Origin: a virus
Taxonomy: Duplodnaviria; Caudoviricetes
DNA: 64,000 nt
Virus record (IMG/VR): IMGVR_UViG_3300028048_000055
Span: 101,062-165,061 of that record
Direction: 5' to 3' (one strand)
The position numbers and the translations under genes are program-made. The notes beneath the pieces were generated by a model that worked only from the letters and a program-made list of their open reading frames with translations, was not told the origin of the DNA and did no database searches. Positions 13,050 through 39,516 of the stretch are shown in pieces (positions within the stretch are counted from its first letter, which is position 1; each line of letters opens with the position of its first letter).

Positions 13050-13760
13050 ATGATTAAAGTATGGCAAATGCATAAATTTAATAAGGTGAAAAAAGCAGTC
13101 GTTATGGAACCTATTGGTTCATGGGGCGATGAAGAAATGAAGTTTACCGATTACTTTCGTATTGAAGCTACAGTAGAAGAATACGATAATGATGTAAGTG
13201 TTAATGTCTATTGGCGAGAACCGGAACGTAATCATGATATTGTTCCGTTTAATGTTCTTATTGATTTAGACCAGCATATTACTCATATGTATACGGGTAA
13301 TCATAATGTTAGTGAAATGATAAAACTTGTTCGTACTGATGCTATTGCTGCATATAAGCAATATATAAATGTAAAGGAAATTTTGATGACTTCACCTTAT
13401 CTTGCAAGTTTTAATTGCACATCCTATAGCGGGTCTGGCCTTAACGTTCGTTTAAAGCCATACGATTTAGAACGTTATATTACAGCTGTAGCAGATGAAG
13501 ATTCTTTTGCAAAGCGAGCAGTGAAAGAACATCCTAACGCTATTGCTGAATATAAGAAAAGTATCTTAAAGGAATTTAGTACTTGGACAACAGTAAATGC
13601 TGATGAGCCGAATCTTTTATTTGATACATTTAATACTTGGTATACAAATAAATATTTGCCGGAGCTTGAACTTGAAGCAAGAAATAAGGAATGTAAAGAT
13701 ACACTTGATGCAATCCAAAGACTCAAAGATGAAAGAGAAGCAAAAAAGAAATCTAATTAA
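13050..13760 (+). CDS. hypothetical protein
   Basis: SD GAGG; 236 aa. Confidence 0.65.
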   Translation: MIKVWQMHKFNKVKKAVVMEPIGSWGDEEMKFTDYFRIEATVEEYDNDVSVNVYWREPERNHDIVPFNVLIDLDQHITHMYTGNHNVSEMIKLVRTDAIAAYKQYINVKEILMTSPYLASFNCTSYSGSGLNVRLKPYDLERYITAVADEDSFAKRAVKEHPNAIAEYKKSILKEFSTWTTVNADEPNLLFDTFNTWYTNKYLPELELEARNKECKDTLDAIQRLKDEREAKKKSN

Positions 13761-13761
13761 A

Positions 13762-13790
13762 ATAAAAGAGGTTTTAAAACCTCTTTTTAT
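13762..13790. terminator. bidirectional intrinsic terminator
   Basis: aaaagaggtt-ttaa-aacctctttt between convergent genes. Confidence 0.75.
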
Positions 13791-14350
13791 TTAAATTTTG
13801 CAAATATTGGTCGATTATCTTTTTCGTATCGTAAAATTAATTTCATATTCTTGATACTGACAAGAGTCGGAAACCATGCTTTCATAAAGAAGTCATATTG
13901 CTCATCAGTCATATAATCAATTCCATTATAGATTACTAAATGATATGAAGGGCCATGTATACATGCTTCAAGCATATCATTACATGAAATTTTTGAACCA
14001 TTACTAAGTACTATGCAATAGTCATTTTCATATGTAACAGAAATAAAATTATCTTTCATTGCATTAAGACGATTTATTACATGTTTGACATAAGATTTTA
14101 TTAAACCCATTTTTGACTCTACATGAATCGGTGCGCCGAAACATATATGTTTATTAGGATTTACTATCGCATACCAGATGGCATATAAATCTGTTTCATC
14201 ACCATCGAGATACTTATTTTGAATTTTTACTGCAATGTGTTGCTTAGTCTGATATTCTCTAACCCATTCTTCTTGATATTTTGTTGGAATAATTCCGAAA
14301 AACTCAGTTATAAAATTTATCGGATCTGATAAGACATCGCTTAAATTCAT
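13787..14350 (-). CDS. degenerate terminase large-subunit ATPase-domain paralog (gp17-like)
   Basis: DPINF, YQ motif, LSNGSKI, IHGPSYHLVIY and FPTLVS align by eye with the T4 gp17 N-domain; Walker A/B residues missing; SD GAGGTG. Confidence 0.6.
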   Translation of the reverse strand: MNLSDVLSDPINFITEFFGIIPTKYQEEWVREYQTKQHIAVKIQNKYLDGDETDLYAIWYAIVNPNKHICFGAPIHVESKMGLIKSYVKHVINRLNAMKDNFISVTYENDYCIVLSNGSKISCNDMLEACIHGPSYHLVIYNGIDYMTDEQYDFFMKAWFPTLVSIKNMKLILRYEKDNRPIFAKFK

Positions 14351-14382
14351 ATATTCACCTCAATTTTATAATATATTTATGG

Positions 14383-14411
14383 TTTACGAAACCAGAAATT
14401 TTTACTATATT
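14383..14411 (+). promoter_or_regulatory. sigma70-type early promoter TTTACG-N17-TATATT
   Basis: One of 13 copies of this promoter class with exact 17-nt spacing. Confidence 0.7.
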
Positions 14412-14419
14412 TAAAATTG

Positions 14420-15064
14420 ATGAAAGACCGAAACAAAATAGATTCAATTTTTAAACGATATCGAAATTACATTCCTTCTCTTTTCGGAGAAGTTAATGCT
14501 TATTATTATAATGAATGTGGTGATAGTATTATTAAAGAAGATACCAATACCGATATAACTAATGATATCGGTTTAGCTTATAATAATATCTATAATTTAT
14601 ATCCTTCTAATAAAAGTTATAGTCGTTGCACTTGGATTAAAGATAATTGTTTCGTTTTAAAACGTTTTTTCCAGAAAGATGATAAAGTTAAAAACGGTGA
14701 CTTGTTAGCTATTACTATTACACCATATGATAAGAATATTCAAAGGCAGCTTGAAGCTTATAGACAGATTCTTATTAAAATTGCACAATTAAAAGCACAA
14801 AGAGAAGAAATTGAAAAAGAACCCATATGGTTTGCTCCAAGTTCTAATTTTGAAAAATATTTAAGTTTTGTTAAGCAATTTAGTCCAAATTTGCTTAAGA
14901 GTTTAACTACTCCAGGTGAGCGTGCTAAACTTGAACATGATGCTAAACTTGCTGTATGTTGTCATGAACTTGGTGAAATGCTTCTTAAAAAAGATAGACA
15001 AAGAACACAATTAATTAATATCTGGAAAAAAGAAAAAGCTAATCTGATGAGGTACGTAGCATGA
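14420..15064 (+). CDS. hypothetical protein with lipoyl/biotinyl-like hairpin and coiled coil
   Basis: FFQKDDKVKNGDLL; start may be TTG 14417. Confidence 0.55.
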   Translation: MKDRNKIDSIFKRYRNYIPSLFGEVNAYYYNECGDSIIKEDTNTDITNDIGLAYNNIYNLYPSNKSYSRCTWIKDNCFVLKRFFQKDDKVKNGDLLAITITPYDKNIQRQLEAYRQILIKIAQLKAQREEIEKEPIWFAPSSNFEKYLSFVKQFSPNLLKSLTTPGERAKLEHDAKLAVCCHELGEMLLKKDRQRTQLINIWKKEKANLMRYVA

Positions 15065-15333
15065 CAGTTGACGTTATAGTATGGTTAATTTTATTAATTG
15101 TTATTAGTCTATCAGTTTTAATTGGCTTATGGGTATTATTTGATATTTTTGGAAATGATTGTGATGGCATTAAAGAAATATGGGATGATTTTTCTAGTTT
15201 TCTAGAATTTATTGTTGATTTCATTTTTGATTATTTTTCAGGTAGGAAACAAGCAAAACTAGATGCTGCCCGTAAACATAAACGTAAAGTAAAAGATTTA
15301 TATTATTCATTTTTAGGATATAAGGTAAAATAG
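15061..15333 (+). CDS. single-TM membrane protein (paralog family)
   Basis: N-terminal TM; C-terminal VKDLYYSFLGYK. Confidence 0.6.
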   Translation: MTVDVIVWLILLIVISLSVLIGLWVLFDIFGNDCDGIKEIWDDFSSFLEFIVDFIFDYFSGRKQAKLDAARKHKRKVKDLYYSFLGYKVK

Positions 15334-15335
15334 CT

Positions 15336-15536
15336 ATGGCAGATGATCCTTTAGCAGTATTATTATTGACTTTTATTATTCTAGGTTCTATTTTCGTTTT
15401 ACCTGCGATTGCTGAAACGATTGGTTTAATAATTGCAGATGGCGTAAATGCAACTAATAAGAAAAAGTTTGAATATCATCAGAAAGTTTCAAAACTTACT
15501 AAGGAATTCCTTAACTTTAAACGTGAGGTAAAGTAA
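15336..15536 (+). CDS. single-TM membrane protein (paralog family)
   Basis: N-terminal TM; C-terminal VSKLTKEFLNFK. Confidence 0.6.
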   Translation: MADDPLAVLLLTFIILGSIFVLPAIAETIGLIIADGVNATNKKKFEYHQKVSKLTKEFLNFKREVK

Positions 15537-15798: not shown

Positions 15799-16266
15799 AT
15801 GAAAACAATTAGAGAAAATACATTTGAAACTAACTCTTCTTCCTGTCATACTTTAATTATCGTATCAAAGGAAGAATTTGAAGCTGTCAAGAATTGCGAT
15901 TATCTTATTTATTATCGTAAGATTATTCCGGCTGAACAAGCCTATAAGGAAACAATGGAAGAACTCGAACAGCTTGAAGAAAAGATGTCCGCCTCTTATC
16001 GTGCTACTTATAAGAATGAACTTACCTTTGATGTCTTTAAGGAAATTCTTAAAAAGTTCAATGAATGGAGTTTGACTTATAGTAATCGGCATGACGCATA
16101 TGCAGGTCCAATCGAAGATAATGAAACTGCTGTTACCGCAGGATTGCCTGAAGAATATGACACATTCAAAACCTATGGTGGCGAATACTATGAAACCTAT
16201 TCCGAAACTTTCACTACCAAGTCCGGTGATGAAATTGTTGCATTCGGCTATTATGGACATGACTAA
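15799..16266 (+). CDS. FETNSSS-leader protein 1
   Basis: MKTIRENTFETNSSSCH. Confidence 0.75.
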   Translation: MKTIRENTFETNSSSCHTLIIVSKEEFEAVKNCDYLIYYRKIIPAEQAYKETMEELEQLEEKMSASYRATYKNELTFDVFKEILKKFNEWSLTYSNRHDAYAGPIEDNETAVTAGLPEEYDTFKTYGGEYYETYSETFTTKSGDEIVAFGYYGHD

Positions 16267-16770
16267 ATGAAAACTATTAGACAAAATACATTTGAAACAA
16301 ATTCATCTTCTTGTCATGTAATCACGGTTCTAACTGACAGTGAACTTGAAATGCTGCAGAAGGGCGAATTGCTTTTAATGGTTTATAAAAGCCAAGGAGA
16401 TAAAGTTCTTACTAAGCCCCTTACGCAGTGGAGATTTAGATATGAAATTCAAGAATGTCAGTGCTGTTATGACTATGAAACTGGTGAAAGAAAGTGGGTT
16501 GATATAGAACGACCTATTATTGATGCATTGTCAGAAGTACTTTGGACTTTACTTATAGAAAATACAAAGGCGCCAGTTGAAAATTTCGAAAATAAGCTTA
16601 ATGATATTTTTGATAAGTTTAACTTAGATGTAAGTTTTATAACCGCAGTAAAAGATTTTATAAATTATATTGAAGGTAGCTATTTTGTACGCGATGTTAC
16701 TGAAAATATGGTAAAATATGGCTCTGGTTATAATACAATGAATTTTAGTTGTCATGAGGTAGAATGCTAA
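16267..16770 (+). CDS. FETNSSS-leader protein 2
   Basis: MKTIRQNTFETNSSSCH. Confidence 0.75.
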   Translation: MKTIRQNTFETNSSSCHVITVLTDSELEMLQKGELLLMVYKSQGDKVLTKPLTQWRFRYEIQECQCCYDYETGERKWVDIERPIIDALSEVLWTLLIENTKAPVENFENKLNDIFDKFNLDVSFITAVKDFINYIEGSYFVRDVTENMVKYGSGYNTMNFSCHEVEC

Positions 16771-17228
16771 TGAAAACGATTAGACAAAATACATTTGAAA
16801 CTAATTCAAGTTCTTGCCATGTTCTTACTGTTGCGGATCAGGCTGAATATGATTTGGTCAAAAATAATCAGGCAGTAATTTATGTTCCTGTCTATCATTC
16901 TCAATCTGAAGATGTTTATGAGTCTGTAATTCTTACTAAGGAAGGTTTTCTTTCTGTTATAGAAAAACAGGTCGGTGAACAGTATGAAACATATTCTACA
17001 TTCTTTGAAGAATCGTGGAATATTATGTTTATGCCTGGTTGTTATGATGATCAGCTCGAAGAACTTGCAGTAAAATACAAGGTTCCATGCGATATCAAGC
17101 AAAAAGTAGAAGATATCATTTGGCACAGCACTCATGAAGAAGGTCAGATTGAAATTCTTAATGATGCAATTAAGAAGGAAGTCAACGGTTCTACCGTATA
17201 TGTAAGTTGTTGGTCTAAATACTGCTAA
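16770..17228 (+). CDS. FETNSSS-leader protein 3
   Basis: MKTIRQNTFETNSSSCH; start revised to 16770 (TAATG). Confidence 0.75.
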   Translation: MKTIRQNTFETNSSSCHVLTVADQAEYDLVKNNQAVIYVPVYHSQSEDVYESVILTKEGFLSVIEKQVGEQYETYSTFFEESWNIMFMPGCYDDQLEELAVKYKVPCDIKQKVEDIIWHSTHEEGQIEILNDAIKKEVNGSTVYVSCWSKYC

Positions 17229-18055
17229 TGAGATATTTGTATAATATGGAAATTGATAGAGAAATCACAGATCTTGGTCATCGATTAAAAGATATCGAAA
17301 AACAAATCGATTATATCAGGGATTGTACCGAAGCAGAACTTGCTAAGTGTGAGCAAGCTATTGATGACCGTATTGCTTATAATTCATATTATAGCCGTTT
17401 TGATCAACCCGCATTTTTAACGACAGACCGTGGATTTTATTGGAAATGGAAACCTGCTAAAAAAGAGTTTCGTGATTACAAACTTAATAAAATCTACAAT
17501 TTCTTTATCAGCTATGATGCAAATGATGACGGTATACGTATAAAGTGGCTTCCATTAGTTGAACGTATCAGGCATATCTGTGTAGATATTGGTAACGTAT
17601 ATTTTAACCATCATGAATCTATCATCGGTGAACATTGCTGTAGTATCTATATTGATAGGCCAACATTGATTAAGAACATATTTGTAAAACGCGATCAGGT
17701 TGTTAATCAAGGTGACGATGTTTATTCTGTCGAATATATCAATATCGATTCTAAGCTTGAAGAAATCTTGAATGATTCAAAACTAGAATATTTGCCGTAT
17801 GATAAATTTATAAAGCTGAATAAGTTTTATAACTGGTGTAAAGAAACTAATCGTCATGCCATTCTTGCAGCAAAAACAGTATGTGATTATCCGAGAATGT
17901 TAACTTCCACTGTTCAATTTGAAGAATTGTATAAAGATGCAATTGATTGCTATAAGACATATGATCCGCAATGTCTTATTAATGAAAATACAAGGACATA
18001 TAGAAACAGGCATGGACATGGGCATCTAAGACCAGGACCAACTGTAAGAATGTAG
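17228..18055 (+). CDS. hypothetical protein with lipoyl/biotinyl-like hairpin
   Basis: IKNIFVKRDQVVNQGDDV. Confidence 0.55.
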   Translation: MRYLYNMEIDREITDLGHRLKDIEKQIDYIRDCTEAELAKCEQAIDDRIAYNSYYSRFDQPAFLTTDRGFYWKWKPAKKEFRDYKLNKIYNFFISYDANDDGIRIKWLPLVERIRHICVDIGNVYFNHHESIIGEHCCSIYIDRPTLIKNIFVKRDQVVNQGDDVYSVEYINIDSKLEEILNDSKLEYLPYDKFIKLNKFYNWCKETNRHAILAAKTVCDYPRMLTSTVQFEELYKDAIDCYKTYDPQCLINENTRTYRNRHGHGHLRPGPTVRM

Positions 18056-18056
18056 G

Positions 18057-18085
18057 TTTACAAAAACCTGCATTTTTTCTATATT
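18057..18085 (+). promoter_or_regulatory. early promoter TTTACA-N17-TATATT, probably leaderless transcript
   Basis: ATG lies 7 nt after the -10 box, no SD. Confidence 0.7.
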
Positions 18086-18092
18086 ATAAGAT

Positions 18093-19358
18093 ATGGTATT
18101 TGAAACTTTTGATAAAACTGTTGCATCTGGTATGGACCTCTGCCGAGTAATCGTTCAGAAGGGTTATGAAGCCTATCTCGTTGGTGGTTGCGTTCGTGAT
18201 ATGATTATGCAAAGACTTGGTATGAGTGACAAGACTGATATTCATGATGTCGATATTGCTACTAACATGCCTATTGAACAGCTTCGGCATAACTTCAAGA
18301 CTGCAAGTAATAATGGTGAAGCACATGGCACAATTCTTGTAGAACATGACGGTATCTATTTCGAAGTTACACAGTTCAGAACTGATGGCATTTATTCTGA
18401 TGGTCGTCATCCTGATTCTGTAACTTTTACTAAGTCGTTCAAGGAAGATACTGCTCGTCGTGACTTTACTATCAATGCTATGGGTCTTGATTGCAACGGT
18501 GTCGTAATTGACCATCACAACGGTATTAAGTGCCTTCAGGATAAGGTTATCAATACTGTTGGTGATCCAGTTGAACGTTTTAGCGAAGATGCACTCCGTA
18601 TTATCAGAGCATATCGCTTTGCCGCAAGGTATAAGTTCGATATTACTCCTGAGATTCGTGAGGCTATTCGTAAGACTAAGTATAAGCTCGCAGATATCGC
18701 AATGGAACGTGTTTCTGATGAACTTAAGAAGTGCATGTCTTATGGCTATACTGAAATCGCTGCTATGGTCAGAATGATGAATACTGATGGTATTTTCCAG
18801 ATTATCGACCCTAAGGGCTATATTAACCCTGTCGAAGCTGAAAATATGCTCAGTACCCGTGCAGTTCGATTCGTAAATGGTATGGGAGGTGCTTATTCAC
18901 CTCTTGGTTCGCTCATATGCATGCTCTGGGGCTCTGATTTAAAAAATGCATATCAACACTATAAGTTAGAGCACGAGGTCTTCAGATGCGCCCAATGGTG
19001 CTTTAATCACCGTGATACTTATCGTAATCCGGATGCTGATATCGTTGATTCAGTTGAAATGATTGCTAATAAATATTTTAATCAGCTTTATGAGCTCGAA
19101 GATGCAATTAGTGGTTATCGTATACCTAAAAAGGCGATTGATGATTTCACTACAATCGCACCTATTGCATTCAAGAATCAAAACTTCCTTAGCGGTGTTC
19201 TTACTCATGCTGGATATCAGGGTAAAGAATTCGGTATTATGCTTCATAAACTTAAGAAATGGTATTATCATAGCTTAAGTACTGGATATGTTCCTGAAAC
19301 TCCGAAATCATTTATTAAAGACATTGAAGCAGCCCTTGCTGATATAAATAATAAATGA
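18093..19358 (+). CDS. cca: CCA tRNA nucleotidyltransferase (class II)
   Basis: YLVGGCVRD, DVDIAT, EVTQFR, RRDFTINAM, RFSEDALRIIRAYRF, ERVSDEL. Confidence 0.9.
   Translation: MVFETFDKTVASGMDLCRVIVQKGYEAYLVGGCVRDMIMQRLGMSDKTDIHDVDIATNMPIEQLRHNFKTASNNGEAHGTILVEHDGIYFEVTQFRTDGIYSDGRHPDSVTFTKSFKEDTARRDFTINAMGLDCNGVVIDHHNGIKCLQDKVINTVGDPVERFSEDALRIIRAYRFAARYKFDITPEIREAIRKTKYKLADIAMERVSDELKKCMSYGYTEIAAMVRMMNTDGIFQIIDPKGYINPVEAENMLSTRAVRFVNGMGGAYSPLGSLICMLWGSDLKNAYQHYKLEHEVFRCAQWCFNHRDTYRNPDADIVDSVEMIANKYFNQLYELEDAISGYRIPKKAIDDFTTIAPIAFKNQNFLSGVLTHAGYQGKEFGIMLHKLKKWYYHSLSTGYVPETPKSFIKDIEAALADINNK
19343..19350 (+). promoter_or_regulatory. late promoter TATAAATA
   Basis: 4 nt before ATG 19355. Confidence 0.65.
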
Positions 19359-20504: not shown

Positions 20505-21653
20505 ATGTATATACCGAAGTTAGAAGATTATTATCGATTAGTAGATGAAGGTTTATTATCAAAGCATGAAACTGAAGATTTAGTCGGTTTCAAGTATAAT
20601 ATTCATACTACTTTTAATAAGCTATGGAATGACGTTACTCTTAACGCCCGTGGTATTACTTTTGATAAGCATACCGGTAAAATTGTTGCACGTCCTTTCC
20701 GAAAGTTCTTCAATCACTCGGAATTTATTACTATTGACCATGCAACAACGGAGCTTTATGATATTGTTCCACAAGAATATCGTCCGAATATTTCTGGCCC
20801 TTTCAGAGTTATGGATAAGCTTGATGGTTTCCTCGCTATTACGTTCTATAATCCCTACACAGAAAAGTGGCAGGTAAAGACTGGTGGTTCATTTCAGGCA
20901 AAGCAGTCTGATTGGGGTCAACATTGGCTTGATGAACATGTCAATACCGATAAGATGAAACTTGAAAATACCTATCTTTTCGAAGGTATTTGGAGTGGTG
21001 ATAGACATGTAGTCAAGTATGACTATGAAGCTCTTAAATTGCTCGCTGTTATCCCGAATGCAACTGGTAATGAATTACCATTATCTGACATTATCCAAGC
21101 AGCAAATGATTTGGGTGTAGAAATGGCAGAAGTTAAGCAGTATTCTAATTTCAATGATATGCTTAAGGAAGTTGCTGATTATCCGTCTACACTTGAAGGC
21201 GTTGTCGTTACATTCGATAACGGTTATAAGTGCAAGGTTAAGGGTATTCAGTATTGTGAGATGTTCATGGTATTGAACAACTTGACTGAAAGAGAAATTT
21301 ACATGAGATATGATCCGGTTAAGGATATTGTTTATGCTAATGTAAATCCGGCAAATGGCTATAAACCGCTTGATGAAGAAGTTCTTGTGGTTCCTGAAGA
21401 ATTGCCGGAAATTTCAGAATATGTAAAGGTTCTTAAAACCAGACAACACGCATTGTTTGAAACTGTATTAAATATGGCCAAGGAAATCCTTAAGACCGGT
21501 TTTGAAGGTAAGGCTTTATACGATGAAGTATGCAATCGTTGGAAGAATAAACCGGAACTTATCGGTGCAACAATGGGTGCAATAAAGTCTTTACAGAGAG
21601 GCGATACTGTATTCTCTACAGCTAAACTTGCTGTCAAGAAACTTTTACGATAA
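20505..21653 (+). CDS. rnlA: RNA ligase 1 (T4 Rnl1/RnlA family)
   Basis: ARGITF...ARPFRKFFN, motif I KLDG, TYLFE, EGVVV, KxK. Confidence 0.85.
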   Translation: MYIPKLEDYYRLVDEGLLSKHETEDLVGFKYNIHTTFNKLWNDVTLNARGITFDKHTGKIVARPFRKFFNHSEFITIDHATTELYDIVPQEYRPNISGPFRVMDKLDGFLAITFYNPYTEKWQVKTGGSFQAKQSDWGQHWLDEHVNTDKMKLENTYLFEGIWSGDRHVVKYDYEALKLLAVIPNATGNELPLSDIIQAANDLGVEMAEVKQYSNFNDMLKEVADYPSTLEGVVVTFDNGYKCKVKGIQYCEMFMVLNNLTEREIYMRYDPVKDIVYANVNPANGYKPLDEEVLVVPEELPEISEYVKVLKTRQHALFETVLNMAKEILKTGFEGKALYDEVCNRWKNKPELIGATMGAIKSLQRGDTVFSTAKLAVKKLLR

Positions 21654-32537: not shown

Positions 32538-34133
32538 ATGAATATTTTTGAACAAGCTGCTGCATTAATCATGGACGATTTTGTCAACGAATCTATGGCG
32601 TCTGACATGTATAAAAACAGCATAAAAAAGAAATTAGAACAGTTAAAAACTGCATGTGGTTATGAACCTAAACTTGATCCAGAAGTTTTGAACTCTGACA
32701 ATGAATTCCAATTAAAATCATATGCTAACTTTTTAACTGATATTCAAAGCCTTTATAAAATATATGTTGAAGGCGGAAATAAGTTTAATGTTGCAAAAGT
32801 AAAGAAATTCTTGCTTGAAATCAATAATAGCAGAACAAAAAATGAACGCCCAGGTGAAGTTGCTTATTTTAATATGGCATTTGATTTATTGTCTACATCA
32901 AGAAAGACAGGTTCTGTAAGTATTATTGAAATCATTAAACCTACTGAAGATTTATTTGCATCTTTCTTTAAGCCAGAAGCTGCTGAAATTTGGGAATCTG
33001 CAGCAGAACAAGCAATAGAAAATCTTATTGCAGTAAAAGCTACTGGAACTAAAACATATAAAGAACGTCAAAGAAGGGATGTTGCACAGGCATTTAAGGA
33101 AAACTGTGAACGCCGTAATGCTGAATTAAAAGAGGCAACAAATGATACTTATCAGATTGTTAAAGGTAATGCTGGTTCTGCAAGACCTATGCTTATTGAT
33201 AAAAAGAAAAAGTTACAGCTTACTATTACTTCGGCAAAGCAACAGGGTGGTGATGAATATGGTAGCTTATATAAATATTCATTAGCTGATGTTTATGGCA
33301 ATGGTTCTATTGAAGAACTTGTCGAAGCAATTAAATATTTCTTTAAAGAAGAATATGGTTATTTCTATGATGATCCTACTGAATTAGATGATTCTGTTAG
33401 ATTTACCCACAAGGGTGATGCTATTGTCGCAGTAGCACCAGAATTATTTAATGAAAACGGTTATGTTGGTGGTCTTTCTGGAACCAAGCAAATTAGCAAT
33501 GATATTATATTACACTTTGTTAATTTAAGCGAAGGTAAGACTGAAAACGGCGGTCGTTATGGTCATTCTAAAGTTGAGAATGATGAAGGTGAAAATCCGT
33601 ATTATAATGAATATAACCCTGCTGATGGCGAATTGCTTATTGTTTCTGAAGATGATAAGATGAATAAATCATATTTGGATGAAAATGCCAAGCATGTCGT
33701 ATTTGAAATCGATGCTGCTGGAACATCTGAAAAAGAAAGTGCTTCTAACTATAATTTCTTGGGTGTATTTAGTAAAGTTACTGAACAAGAAAGAGAAAAT
33801 GGCGGTTATATGGTAAACTATGTTCTCGAATCTGATACTTTAGAAGTTTCTGGTCACTCTGCTGGTGAAGTTACAACCGAATCCAAGAAAGTTCGAAATG
33901 CATTAAAGCTTCTTAAGGAAAATGGTTATCTCGTTGAATTCCGTGACGCAAGTCAGGATTTAAATGACGATCCTTATGATGATTCTGAAGCATGGAATAA
34001 CGGTAATCCGACATACCAAGACTCTGAAGGTGTTGAAGACCGTAATGAGAAGCAAACAGTTTCTAGAAAAATGGACAATCTCATTAAGAAAATCGATGAA
34101 GTATGTAACAGATTTGAAGACTATGACTATTAA
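32538..34133 (+). CDS. late hypothetical protein (putative internal head protein)
   Basis: TATAAATA 32510-32517; SD AGGAG; VRNALKLLKENGYLVE motif. Confidence 0.7.
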   Translation: MNIFEQAAALIMDDFVNESMASDMYKNSIKKKLEQLKTACGYEPKLDPEVLNSDNEFQLKSYANFLTDIQSLYKIYVEGGNKFNVAKVKKFLLEINNSRTKNERPGEVAYFNMAFDLLSTSRKTGSVSIIEIIKPTEDLFASFFKPEAAEIWESAAEQAIENLIAVKATGTKTYKERQRRDVAQAFKENCERRNAELKEATNDTYQIVKGNAGSARPMLIDKKKKLQLTITSAKQQGGDEYGSLYKYSLADVYGNGSIEELVEAIKYFFKEEYGYFYDDPTELDDSVRFTHKGDAIVAVAPELFNENGYVGGLSGTKQISNDIILHFVNLSEGKTENGGRYGHSKVENDEGENPYYNEYNPADGELLIVSEDDKMNKSYLDENAKHVVFEIDAAGTSEKESASNYNFLGVFSKVTEQERENGGYMVNYVLESDTLEVSGHSAGEVTTESKKVRNALKLLKENGYLVEFRDASQDLNDDPYDDSEAWNNGNPTYQDSEGVEDRNEKQTVSRKMDNLIKKIDEVCNRFEDYDY

Positions 34134-38018: not shown

Positions 38019-38795
38019 ATGAAGACTATTCGTCTTGGTACTTTTGAAACAAATTCATCGTCAATGCATGCTTTTGTTATTCCAAGAAATTATTGCATTG
38101 ACCATAAAAAGAATTATAAGATTGATTTCAGATTCGATAAGGATTTTACCGATCGAACGCTGGTTCCTCATACTTCCATCGAAGATAAGGCTTCTTATAT
38201 GTTTCAATTAATTTGTCAGCATTTTAACAATCATTTCGACTCTTTATATTACTATGATGAAAATCGAAATGAGATTGAATATACTGGCGAAGAACGAACA
38301 AAACGAGTAGATCATAATGAAAGAGTTATTGAACTGTTTAAACTGTTCCAAAAGGCTCTTATCGTTTTTGCAAAGCGTAATTACAATATCGATGTGACTT
38401 TCTCTAGCTATGAAATTTCAAGAGAATATGTTAATTATAGAGATGAGGTTCGTCATGTTTATAGTATTAACCAAGGCGATCCAAAAATTTATACTGGCCT
38501 TGGCTGTTATGGTCATGCTGGTGTAAATGGTGTTATTCTTTCCAGTATATTTGAAGCGATTGATAAAGCGCTTGAAACTAATGACTTTAGATACTTTGAA
38601 CTTATTGTAGAAAAGGAACAATGGTTTAGCGGCGCTTGTAATCTCTTTGAATTCATTGTAAATCCTGATGCAATCATTATTCAATGCACTGATGAATGCT
38701 CTAAAACAATGAAAAATAATATGCTTAAACTGGTTAAGGAATACATGAAGAAAAGTAATTATATGTGTAATGTAGTTTGGCCAATTGGCGGGTAA
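38019..38795 (+). CDS. FETNSSS-leader protein 4
   Basis: MKTIRLGTFETNSSSMH; SD GAGGA; start revised. Confidence 0.75.
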   Translation: MKTIRLGTFETNSSSMHAFVIPRNYCIDHKKNYKIDFRFDKDFTDRTLVPHTSIEDKASYMFQLICQHFNNHFDSLYYYDENRNEIEYTGEERTKRVDHNERVIELFKLFQKALIVFAKRNYNIDVTFSSYEISREYVNYRDEVRHVYSINQGDPKIYTGLGCYGHAGVNGVILSSIFEAIDKALETNDFRYFELIVEKEQWFSGACNLFEFIVNPDAIIIQCTDECSKTMKNNMLKLVKEYMKKSNYMCNVVWPIGG

Positions 38796-38796
38796 T

Positions 38797-39516
38797 ATGA
38801 AAATATTTTCAAAATTCCGCGATTATTATGACTGTGCTCTTAGTTCTTTCCTGGAATCGGATGTAGTCATTCATCGTGAAACAAAAGATAATTTCATTCG
38901 AACAGGTGAAGTTGAAGAACTTGGAAACTTCGATGCAAAATGGAATTATATCTTTGATGGCTATTATGGAAAAACATATGGGCATAAAAATCTTTACATG
39001 ATTGGCTTCTGCGGTAAATGGTATTTCTTCACTGGAGACCGTTATCGAGATGTTAATGGCGTTGATCCTAATACAATCGAATATCATACATTTGACGAAA
39101 TTGTAAAAAACAATCGTGAAATGTCTTTATTCAAATCTCTGCCAAGATGGGATAGACCTGATCGTAATATTAATTACAAAAACCCGAATGAAGTAAAATT
39201 CTGGAATTTTGATTTATTTGAAAAGTTCGGTCCGGTTTTATTTTTGGATAATTATTATTGTGTATCTAAATTTCCATACCGCTCACCGCATAAACAAAGT
39301 ACATTTAATTTTGTTTCGTGGCCATGTCTTGGTGAATATAGATTTGAAAAAGTAATGGATCCATATACTGCGATGTGGGAACTTGAACATTGGTTCGATT
39401 TTCATGCGAAACCTGACGACGCTATCGTTCCGGTTGGTGATGATATTACACGCCTTCAAGCATACGGCTTTGACAAAAAGACATCATTTAGAAAAGGAAA
39501 GGAAAAGAAATGTTAG
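38797..39516 (+). CDS. conserved phage hypothetical protein
   Basis: MKIFSKFRDYYD, IGFCGK, GFDKKTSFRK. Confidence 0.7.
   Translation: MKIFSKFRDYYDCALSSFLESDVVIHRETKDNFIRTGEVEELGNFDAKWNYIFDGYYGKTYGHKNLYMIGFCGKWYFFTGDRYRDVNGVDPNTIEYHTFDEIVKNNREMSLFKSLPRWDRPDRNINYKNPNEVKFWNFDLFEKFGPVLFLDNYYCVSKFPYRSPHKQSTFNFVSWPCLGEYRFEKVMDPYTAMWELEHWFDFHAKPDDAIVPVGDDITRLQAYGFDKKTSFRKGKEKKC

Follow-up and report, generated by a model that had tools for sequence, protein, structure and literature searches.

Why would a large phage keep an intact gene that resembles the ATPase domain of the large terminase (TerL) and from which the catalytic motifs are gone? The gene in question lies in the final 64 kb of a 165-kb virus record with a G+C content of 32%; the whole stretch of 64,000 nt is referred to below as the window. 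CheckV gives the completeness of the record as 40%. Relatives having the same gene occupy contigs of 367-679 kb, and the source is therefore a mega-sized, T4-related phage. An earlier description made from the letters alone (here, the sequence-only reading) had presented the gene as an intact and lone ORF of 187 aa on the opposite strand. This was borne out, as the ORF starts with ATG, contains zero internal stops, and keeps its orientation in the first two of the three clades of its family.

13787..14350, minus strand: coding sequence, stop codon included, of the dead TerL-ATPase-core paralog (here, the dead copy), as identified from ORF, homology, fold, motif loss, and dN/dS

The family consists of 55 intact copies falling into three clusters at 90% identity with 23, 21, and 11 members, denoted as clades 1, 2, and 3. 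The copies are 184-195 aa long (most of them 187-189). Identity to the protein of the window is 47-50%, while clades 2 and 3 are 63% identical to each other.

Homology, fold, and loss of catalytic motifs

The relationship of the dead copy to terminases was assessed by several sequence searches. Using tblastn on 50,697 phage records, we obtained 117 matches, almost all of which are annotated as TerL and belong to T4-like cyanophages and Rak2-like jumbo phages (query coverage of about 88%, identity of 22-24%, best E-value of 3e-5). Besides orthologs, phmmer returned solely TerL-like proteins from 1.84 billion representatives, with E-values ranging from 8e-6 to 9e-4. Comparison to the TerL ATPase of the phage itself, described further below, resulted in an E-value of 3e-9 in blastp and, when the profile of the dead-copy family was aligned to that of the TerL ATPase by hhalign, in a probability of 97.6% (E 4.7e-12, 160 columns). 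Direct blastp comparison to T4 gp17 was not significant (E 0.55), yet the alignment is colinear with gp17 residues 178-284.

General-purpose profiles were less informative. The dead copy reaches no Pfam threshold and is not matched by PF03237 even at an E-value of 10; the sole match of this profile in the genome is the other TerL-like gene. Neither the comparison of the ORF to PDB sequences nor megablast of the region against phages gave a match. The sole PHROG match is phrog_5989 (18.7 bits, E 1.5e-3, 119 of 347 positions), to which the clade-2 member P0003 has no match. Scanning the viral and metagenome contig sets with the family alignment resulted in no further orthologs and only in one ordinary TerL of 539 aa.

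The structure of the dead copy was then modelled by AF2 with a multiple sequence alignment (MSA) of 56 sequences, TerLs among them. The model (pLDDT 90.4, pTM 0.88) supersedes a poor single-sequence AF2 model with a pLDDT of 49. Its best PDB match in Foldseek is the T4 gp17 ATPase domain 2o0h (E 2.7e-8, TM 0.70-0.76), below which rank P74-26, HK97, D6E, Sf6, and the PhiV-1 terminase bound to Avs3. In BFVD every top match is a terminase; short TerL-like proteins are also seen there in Atu_ph07 and fHe-Yen9-04. Since the AF2 alignment contained TerLs, a model independent of the MSA is of particular value here. The ESM Atlas single-sequence model of the exact protein has a pTM of 0.82, and the structures nearest to it are Terminase_6N clusters with a TM of 0.84. 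Foldseek, ESM Atlas, and hhalign therefore all place the dead copy in an ATPase fold homologous to gp17 subdomain I. The likeness to the gp17 N-domain, originally claimed by eye, was recovered by tblastn, phmmer, hhalign, and Foldseek as well as in the colinear blastp alignment, and the structural similarity to TerL that the sequence-only reading had proposed to look for was found in the match to 2o0h.

Aligned with TerLs, the dead copy is colinear between the adenine-binding YQ and the position directly after motif III, where it ends ahead of the lid subdomain. It has no counterpart to roughly the first 100 residues of the real enzyme, nor to the lid subdomain or a nuclease domain. The functional motifs within the aligned part are as follows.

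Walker A: RQSGK[ST] in TerLs; NKYLDG in clade 1; DNYMDY in clades 2 and 3
RG pair before Walker B: Arg in TerLs; His (HG) in clade 1; Cys (CG) in clades 2 and 3
Walker B: DE in TerLs; NG in clade 1; IG in clades 2 and 3
Motif III: STP in TerLs; RYE in clade 1; MYE in clades 2 and 3
Adenine-binding motif: YQ in TerLs; kept as KYQ in clade 1; lost in clades 2 and 3 (KE, IH)

Loss of the catalytic motifs is common to all three clades. The position of G-K-[ST] in Walker A is taken by L-D-G in clade 1 and by M-D-Y in clades 2 and 3, with Asp in place of Lys, and the P-loop has given way to an acidic, conserved YxDxD stretch. Resemblance to TerL is now confined to two elements, the core sheet and the helix following the P-loop (LYAIWYAI, VLSNGSKI). 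The family also has invariant motifs of its own, namely DVLxxPxNxIxEFFG, MKDNFIS, G[IL]DxMTDxQY, and YEKxNRxIF. All motifs that had been named earlier as present (DPINF, KYQ, NGSKI, GPSYHLVIY, and FPTLVS) were located, and the claimed replacement of Walker A and Walker B agrees with the alignment (NKYLDG for RQSGK[ST] and NG for DE). Having no P-loop, catalytic carboxylate, or lid, the dead copy, as judged from its sequence, cannot be an ATPase and must act by binding only.

Selection on the gene and its expression signals

Within clade 1 the Nei-Gojobori dN/dS was 0.16-0.24, and within clade 2 it was 0.12. This check had been named beforehand, and the values correspond to purifying selection; neutral decay of the dead copy is excluded. 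Between clades, identity is 47% for the dead copy, compared to 27% for one flanking gene and 24% for the other. Orthologs of the TerL ATPase show a similar divergence, with identities of 43-47%. In both clades 1 and 2, the dead copy stands by itself on the opposite strand, flanked by the same neighbours, with both position and inverted orientation conserved. Sequence, fold, and selection together support the view that the gene encodes a stand-alone, catalytically dead, intact, and selected paralog of the TerL ATPase domain.

A CCA-adding enzyme and an RNA ligase of the T4 type are also encoded at the locus, to which clade 2 adds an NMNAT/Nudix protein. In the window, the CCA-adding/poly(A)-polymerase-family enzyme (18093-19358) and the T4 Rnl1-type RNA ligase (20505-21653) are located 4-7 kb from the dead copy, their Pfam labels having been taken from the near-identical locus L009. 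The two enzymes are likely a tRNA-repair set. Positions 15799-17228 hold three tandem paralogs of 155, 167, and 154 aa with the common N-terminus MKTIRxNTFETNSSSCH, whose clade-2 counterparts are 55-60% identical.

Signals for the expression of the dead copy and of its divergent neighbour are listed below.

13764..13787, bidirectional: intrinsic terminator hairpin, common to the convergent plus-strand gene 13050-13760
14356..14361, minus strand: Shine-Dalgarno sequence GAGGTG, 5 nt before the ATG; the clade-2 equivalent is AGGAGTG
14374..14381, minus strand: CATAAATA box, candidate promoter, 23 nt upstream of the ATG and one mismatch from TATAAATA
14383..14411, plus strand: sigma-70-like promoter TTTACG-N17-TACTATAT of the divergent neighbour gene 14417/14420-15064

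The hairpin has a perfect stem of 10 pairs with T-runs on both strands (2 such hairpins found versus 0.2 expected), and clade 2 has a different hairpin in the same place. Both the ribosome-binding site at 14356-14361 and the terminator at 13764-13787 had been noted in the sequence-only reading, correctly in each case.

Three clade-1 loci have kept the CATAAATA box; in clade 2, the exact TATAAATA is found 43 nt upstream. In order to have a baseline, the letters of TATAAATA were permuted; of the copies of the 55 alternative 8-mers, 9.6% are start-linked. Genome-wide, 27 of the 53 copies of TATAAATA are at most 45 nt upstream of a start on the same strand (p 2e-14). The number of copies in the window (21 versus 16.5 expected) is not above chance, and it is the placement alone that is non-random; examples are at 19343, 22688, 32510, 36800, 45052 (minus strand), and 58318 (minus strand). 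The earlier suggestion of a late-promoter variant therefore stands as far as the start linkage of TATAAATA is concerned, but CATAAATA taken alone is not significantly linked to starts (4 of 20, p 0.12) and T4 gp55 has no match in the 165-kb record. As to a late identity of the genes having TATAAATA, ten large ORFs gave no informative PHROG or Pfam match. A frequent arrangement is TATAAATA-N4-ATG. Transcription from T4 late promoters starts just downstream of the box; if transcription here likewise starts just past it, this arrangement would lead to leaderless or nearly leaderless mRNAs. By the same analogy with the T4 late promoter, genes having a TATAAATA-type box may be expressed late.

The sigma-70-like promoter belongs to a different set. 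Fourteen near-identical sites, all on the plus strand, are present genome-wide, each with a -35 box of the TTGACA/TTTACA type followed by TACTATAT and each before a plus-strand operon; those in the window include 14383-14411, 26208, 45082, 50430, 50898, and 52990. This shows that the plus-strand genes flanking the dead copy have another class of promoter. The dead copy is thus its own transcription unit, of a class unlike that of its neighbours.

The terminase of the phage and comparison to known systems

Outside the window, the record contains one further TerL-like gene, the only other one in the genome.

Record positions 38140-39156 (G000:C1; L002:1186-2202, likely start L002:1222), outside the window: genuine TerL ATPase, stand-alone, 326-338 aa

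It matches Terminase_6N (2e-13) and T4 gp17 structures (9e-15), and the motifs YQ, RQSGKS, and ISTP are present. Its Walker B reads FDD in clade 1 compared to DE in more distant orthologs. The protein ends about 20 residues past the motif EYYCEFIG. In the alignment, this motif falls on (F/E)C(E/Q)F(L/I)G, which in full-length TerLs is located just ahead of the nuclease half. Four orthologs of 326-335 aa, with identities down to 43%, end at the same point. Since the next genes downstream of one of these orthologs are on the other strand, there is no intron or frameshift leading to a nuclease exon. A search for the Terminase_6C nuclease (PF17289) gave nothing above 9.8 bits anywhere in the 165 kb, and no nuclease part was detected in the record when two full TerLs were used as tblastn queries. 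The 9.8-bit match itself, inside a 531-aa ORF at 32538-34133, was rejected by hhalign (probability of 0.1%) and by Pfam and PHROGs. The nuclease half must be encoded in the unseen 60% of the genome or have been replaced. The real terminase of this lineage is therefore split, and having no nuclease is a property of the lineage and not only of the dead copy. Although the nuclease domain is absent from the dead copy, as the sequence-only reading had pointed out, this is not special to it, the TerL ATPase being likewise nuclease-less in all four orthologs found.

Some 76 kb separate the dead copy, itself on the opposite strand, from the TerL ATPase gene. Contig scans with the TerL ATPase gene resulted in distant TerLs only. 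In one relative (L012, a 103-kb contig), a radical-SAM-like gene containing an intein/LAGLIDADG (13423-15516) and an IS605-type TnpB/TnpA pair (16801-18514) are found within a few kb of the TerL ATPase gene; another relative (L011) contains an IS1595-type transposase.

Comparing the dead copy to the T4 gp17-type ATPase domain (Terminase_6N; 2o0h, 3cpe) and to the phage's own TerL ATPase, the shared features are the fold, the colinearity from YQ to beyond motif III, the helix LYAIWYAI following the P-loop, and the xLxNGSxI strand. Unlike a T4-type TerL, it has no PF03237 match or other Pfam assignment at threshold, no Walker A, Walker B, or motif III, no N-terminal extension, and neither lid nor nuclease. 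TerL motors have been described as homopentamers. Among ring ATPases of the ASCE/RecA-type fold, dead paralogs such as clamp-loader delta and delta-prime and the Rad51 paralogs act as partners of active paralogs; as in the dead copy, the fold is retained without nucleotide hydrolysis, a likeness that we use as an analogy.

Stand-alone or truncated copies of TerL are not unprecedented, being present in Rak2-like phages, in phiM12/phiN3, and as T4 vs.8; our literature search on dead or truncated terminase paralogs found only two reports (PMC5259590 and PMC13601566). Buttimer et al. (2017) described CBB_274 with its Rak2-like homologues, that of GAP32 among them, and genes of the Sinorhizobium phages phiM12 and phiN3 as truncated large terminases and called them unusual (PMC5259590). 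CBB_274 is 235 aa long, has degenerate Walker A (GAGLST) and Walker B (YDS) motifs, still has the lid region, and shares 14 nt with the start of the true terL. The dead copy is similar in being a short, extra, degenerate TerL-ATPase copy in a jumbo phage that also holds a real TerL ATPase. Unlike CBB_274, however, it consists of the core only, is 76 kb away from the TerL ATPase gene on the opposite strand, and has no overlap with terL. The family phrog_5989 is defined by CBB_274, which scores 275 bits, compared to 72 bits for the phage's own TerL ATPase and 18.7 bits for the dead copy. The hhalign probability for the dead-copy family is 31% with CBB_274 but reaches 92.9% with CBB_275, the true TerL, and 97.6% with the TerL ATPase of the phage itself. 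Because the family is nearer to true TerLs and is outscored on phrog_5989 by the phage's own TerL ATPase, we do not consider it a member of phrog_5989; profile match, nearest kin, and the absent terL overlap all speak against membership. As far as these alignments go, the dead copy probably arose independently of the Rak2-type truncated terminase, by a separate duplication.

The second report concerns T4 vs.8, a TerL-like ATPase that stands alone and is toxic together with EcAvs2 (Evans et al. 2026, PMC13601566). Like vs.8, the dead copy is a small stand-alone protein of the terminase-ATPase fold in a T4-type phage and is encoded outside the packaging module. Kinship between the two was rejected, as the blastp E-value is 46 and the Walker motifs are intact in vs.8 alone (phrog_1488; Walker A GRQSGKS, Walker B IIDEP). 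Among the sparsely documented dead or truncated TerL paralogs, the dead copy is a new and probably independently evolved variant.

Possible roles of the dead copy

Both roles put forward in the sequence-only reading, a decoy for terminase-sensing immunity and a dominant-negative regulator of packaging, are candidates here. The reading that we prefer, tentatively and at less than even confidence, is that the dead copy is a non-catalytic partner of the split packaging motor. The gene would most likely have originated by duplication of the stand-alone TerL ATPase gene of the lineage. The duplicate would then have lost nucleotide binding and hydrolysis, with the RecA-like core (subdomain I) staying as a pseudo-ATPase. 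Expressed from its own (T/C)ATAAATA-type transcription unit, the protein might dock onto the catalytic TerL ATPase or another part of the packaging vertex through the ring-interface surfaces that the core fold has kept. In doing so it could tune assembly or initiation, or keep the motor inactive until a prohead is available. Binding partner, timing, and effect on packaging are what we infer here. We favour this role because the nearest relative of the dead copy is the lineage's own motor (hhalign probability of 97.6%), because purifying selection is steady and at the motor's own rate (47% versus 43-47%), because the locus is fixed in position and inverted orientation in clades 1 and 2, because the motor is already modular with a separate TerL ATPase of 326-338 aa, and because the analogous Rak2 gene is coupled to terL. 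In that Rak2-like precedent, the degenerate truncated TerL sits where T4 has its small terminase gene (PMC5259590). A partnership with the motor is weakened, on the other hand, by the distance of about 76 kb from the TerL ATPase gene in a neighbourhood of tRNA-repair and nucleotide-metabolism rather than morphogenesis genes, by the absence of lid and nuclease domains, by a late timing that is analogy only (CATAAATA not significant, no gp55), and by a Rak2-type precedent that is not specifically related. Lid and nuclease domains make subunit-to-subunit and portal contacts in other TerLs.

The new invariant motifs, the acidic YxDxD stretch in place of the P-loop, and a genomic site away from packaging genes, in a protein from which all TerL-specific functional motifs are gone, would also fit a binder that has acquired a function outside both packaging and terminase sensing. 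For such a protein the TerL core would be a mere scaffold; it could bind DNA or RNA, bind a host protein, or serve as a poison subunit that targets the terminase of another phage or of a satellite infecting the same cell. We regard this as possible, though somewhat on the unlikely side, since nothing positive indicates any particular alternative partner and the elements retained, a core sheet and the helix that follows the P-loop, are those of TerL.

A third explanation involves a further small gene, located upstream of the window.

Record positions 99435-99665 (G000:C1; L030:2936-3166), 1.4 kb before the window start: 76-aa portal-segment look-alike (Portal_T4, phrog_213)

This ORF is above threshold for Pfam Portal_T4 (34.8 bits, E 1.1e-8), also matches phrog_213, and is the sole portal-like sequence in the 165-kb record. 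It aligns to residues 279-321 of T4 gp20, which we take to be the stem/clip part of the portal, the docking site of terminase. The cluster of the ORF counts 32 members, some of them on contigs of 411 and 421 kb. By its alignment, the ORF appears as a free-standing copy of a portal segment. A NADAR-domain protein (G000:C1:97026-97559, L030:527-1060; PF08719, E 1.9e-35) is encoded 1.9 kb upstream; it is possibly a reverser of ADP-ribosylation that shares an operon region with the portal mimic. The ORF at G000:C1:97562-98032, considered as a prohead protease without the catalytic His, was unsupported (phrog_207 E 0.12, no Pfam match).

STAND sensors recognise signatures of conserved phage proteins, TerL in the case of Avs1-3 and Upx and portal in the case of Avs4, and the dead copy could thus be an immune decoy or anti-sensor: a dead core mimicking TerL that occupies Avs1-3, Upx, or a similar sensor without triggering it, and that may act jointly with the 76-aa portal-segment mimic against portal sensors. 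The same phage keeps that conserved portal-segment copy, likely counter-defence genes are neighbours (RNA ligase, CCA-adding enzyme, and NMNAT/Nudix protein; NADAR near the portal mimic), and the TATAAATA-type box, if late, would give co-expression with TerL. Anti-defence genes, however, are usually patchy and turn over fast; the steady purifying selection on the dead copy and a locus fixed over deep divergence are not the pattern of an arms race, and the invariant motifs of the family are not TerL-like. Terminase ATPase domains directly trigger Avs2, Avs3, and Upx, the ATPase domain alone being sufficient for Upx, and the recognition of T4 vs.8 by EcAvs2 indicates that small TerL-like proteins can enter the sensor pocket; but Avs2 and Avs3 contact terminase-bound ATP/Mg and active-site features, all of which are gone in the dead copy (PMC13601566). 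No terminase decoy was found in the published literature. On balance we consider a decoy unlikely, and it is more doubtful still that the dead TerL core and the 76-aa portal mini-protein form one mimicry strategy to occupy or mislead STAND sensors.

Finally, despite the loss of all catalytic motifs and two domains, a functionless remnant of a duplicated terminase gene in decay is highly improbable given dN/dS values of 0.12-0.24, 55 intact copies of near-constant length in three clades, better conservation than that of the flanking genes, and a conserved ribosome-binding site, terminator, and orientation.

Extra dead copies of the TerL motor domain recur in large phages, that is, in Rak2-like phages, in phiM12/phiN3, and now in a lineage with contigs of 367-679 kb. 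The present one makes a clean case for study, as it is a minimal core of probably independent origin that is constrained like the real enzyme, in a phage with a split terminase and a portal-segment copy. If the dead copy is a decoy, it would represent a new class of counter-defence, directed at Avs-type sensors that detect conserved phage proteins, and the two-part mimicry, if true, would provide the first phage decoys against protein pattern-recognition immunity. If, as we tentatively prefer, it is a subunit of the motor, viral packaging motors can be hetero-oligomeric.
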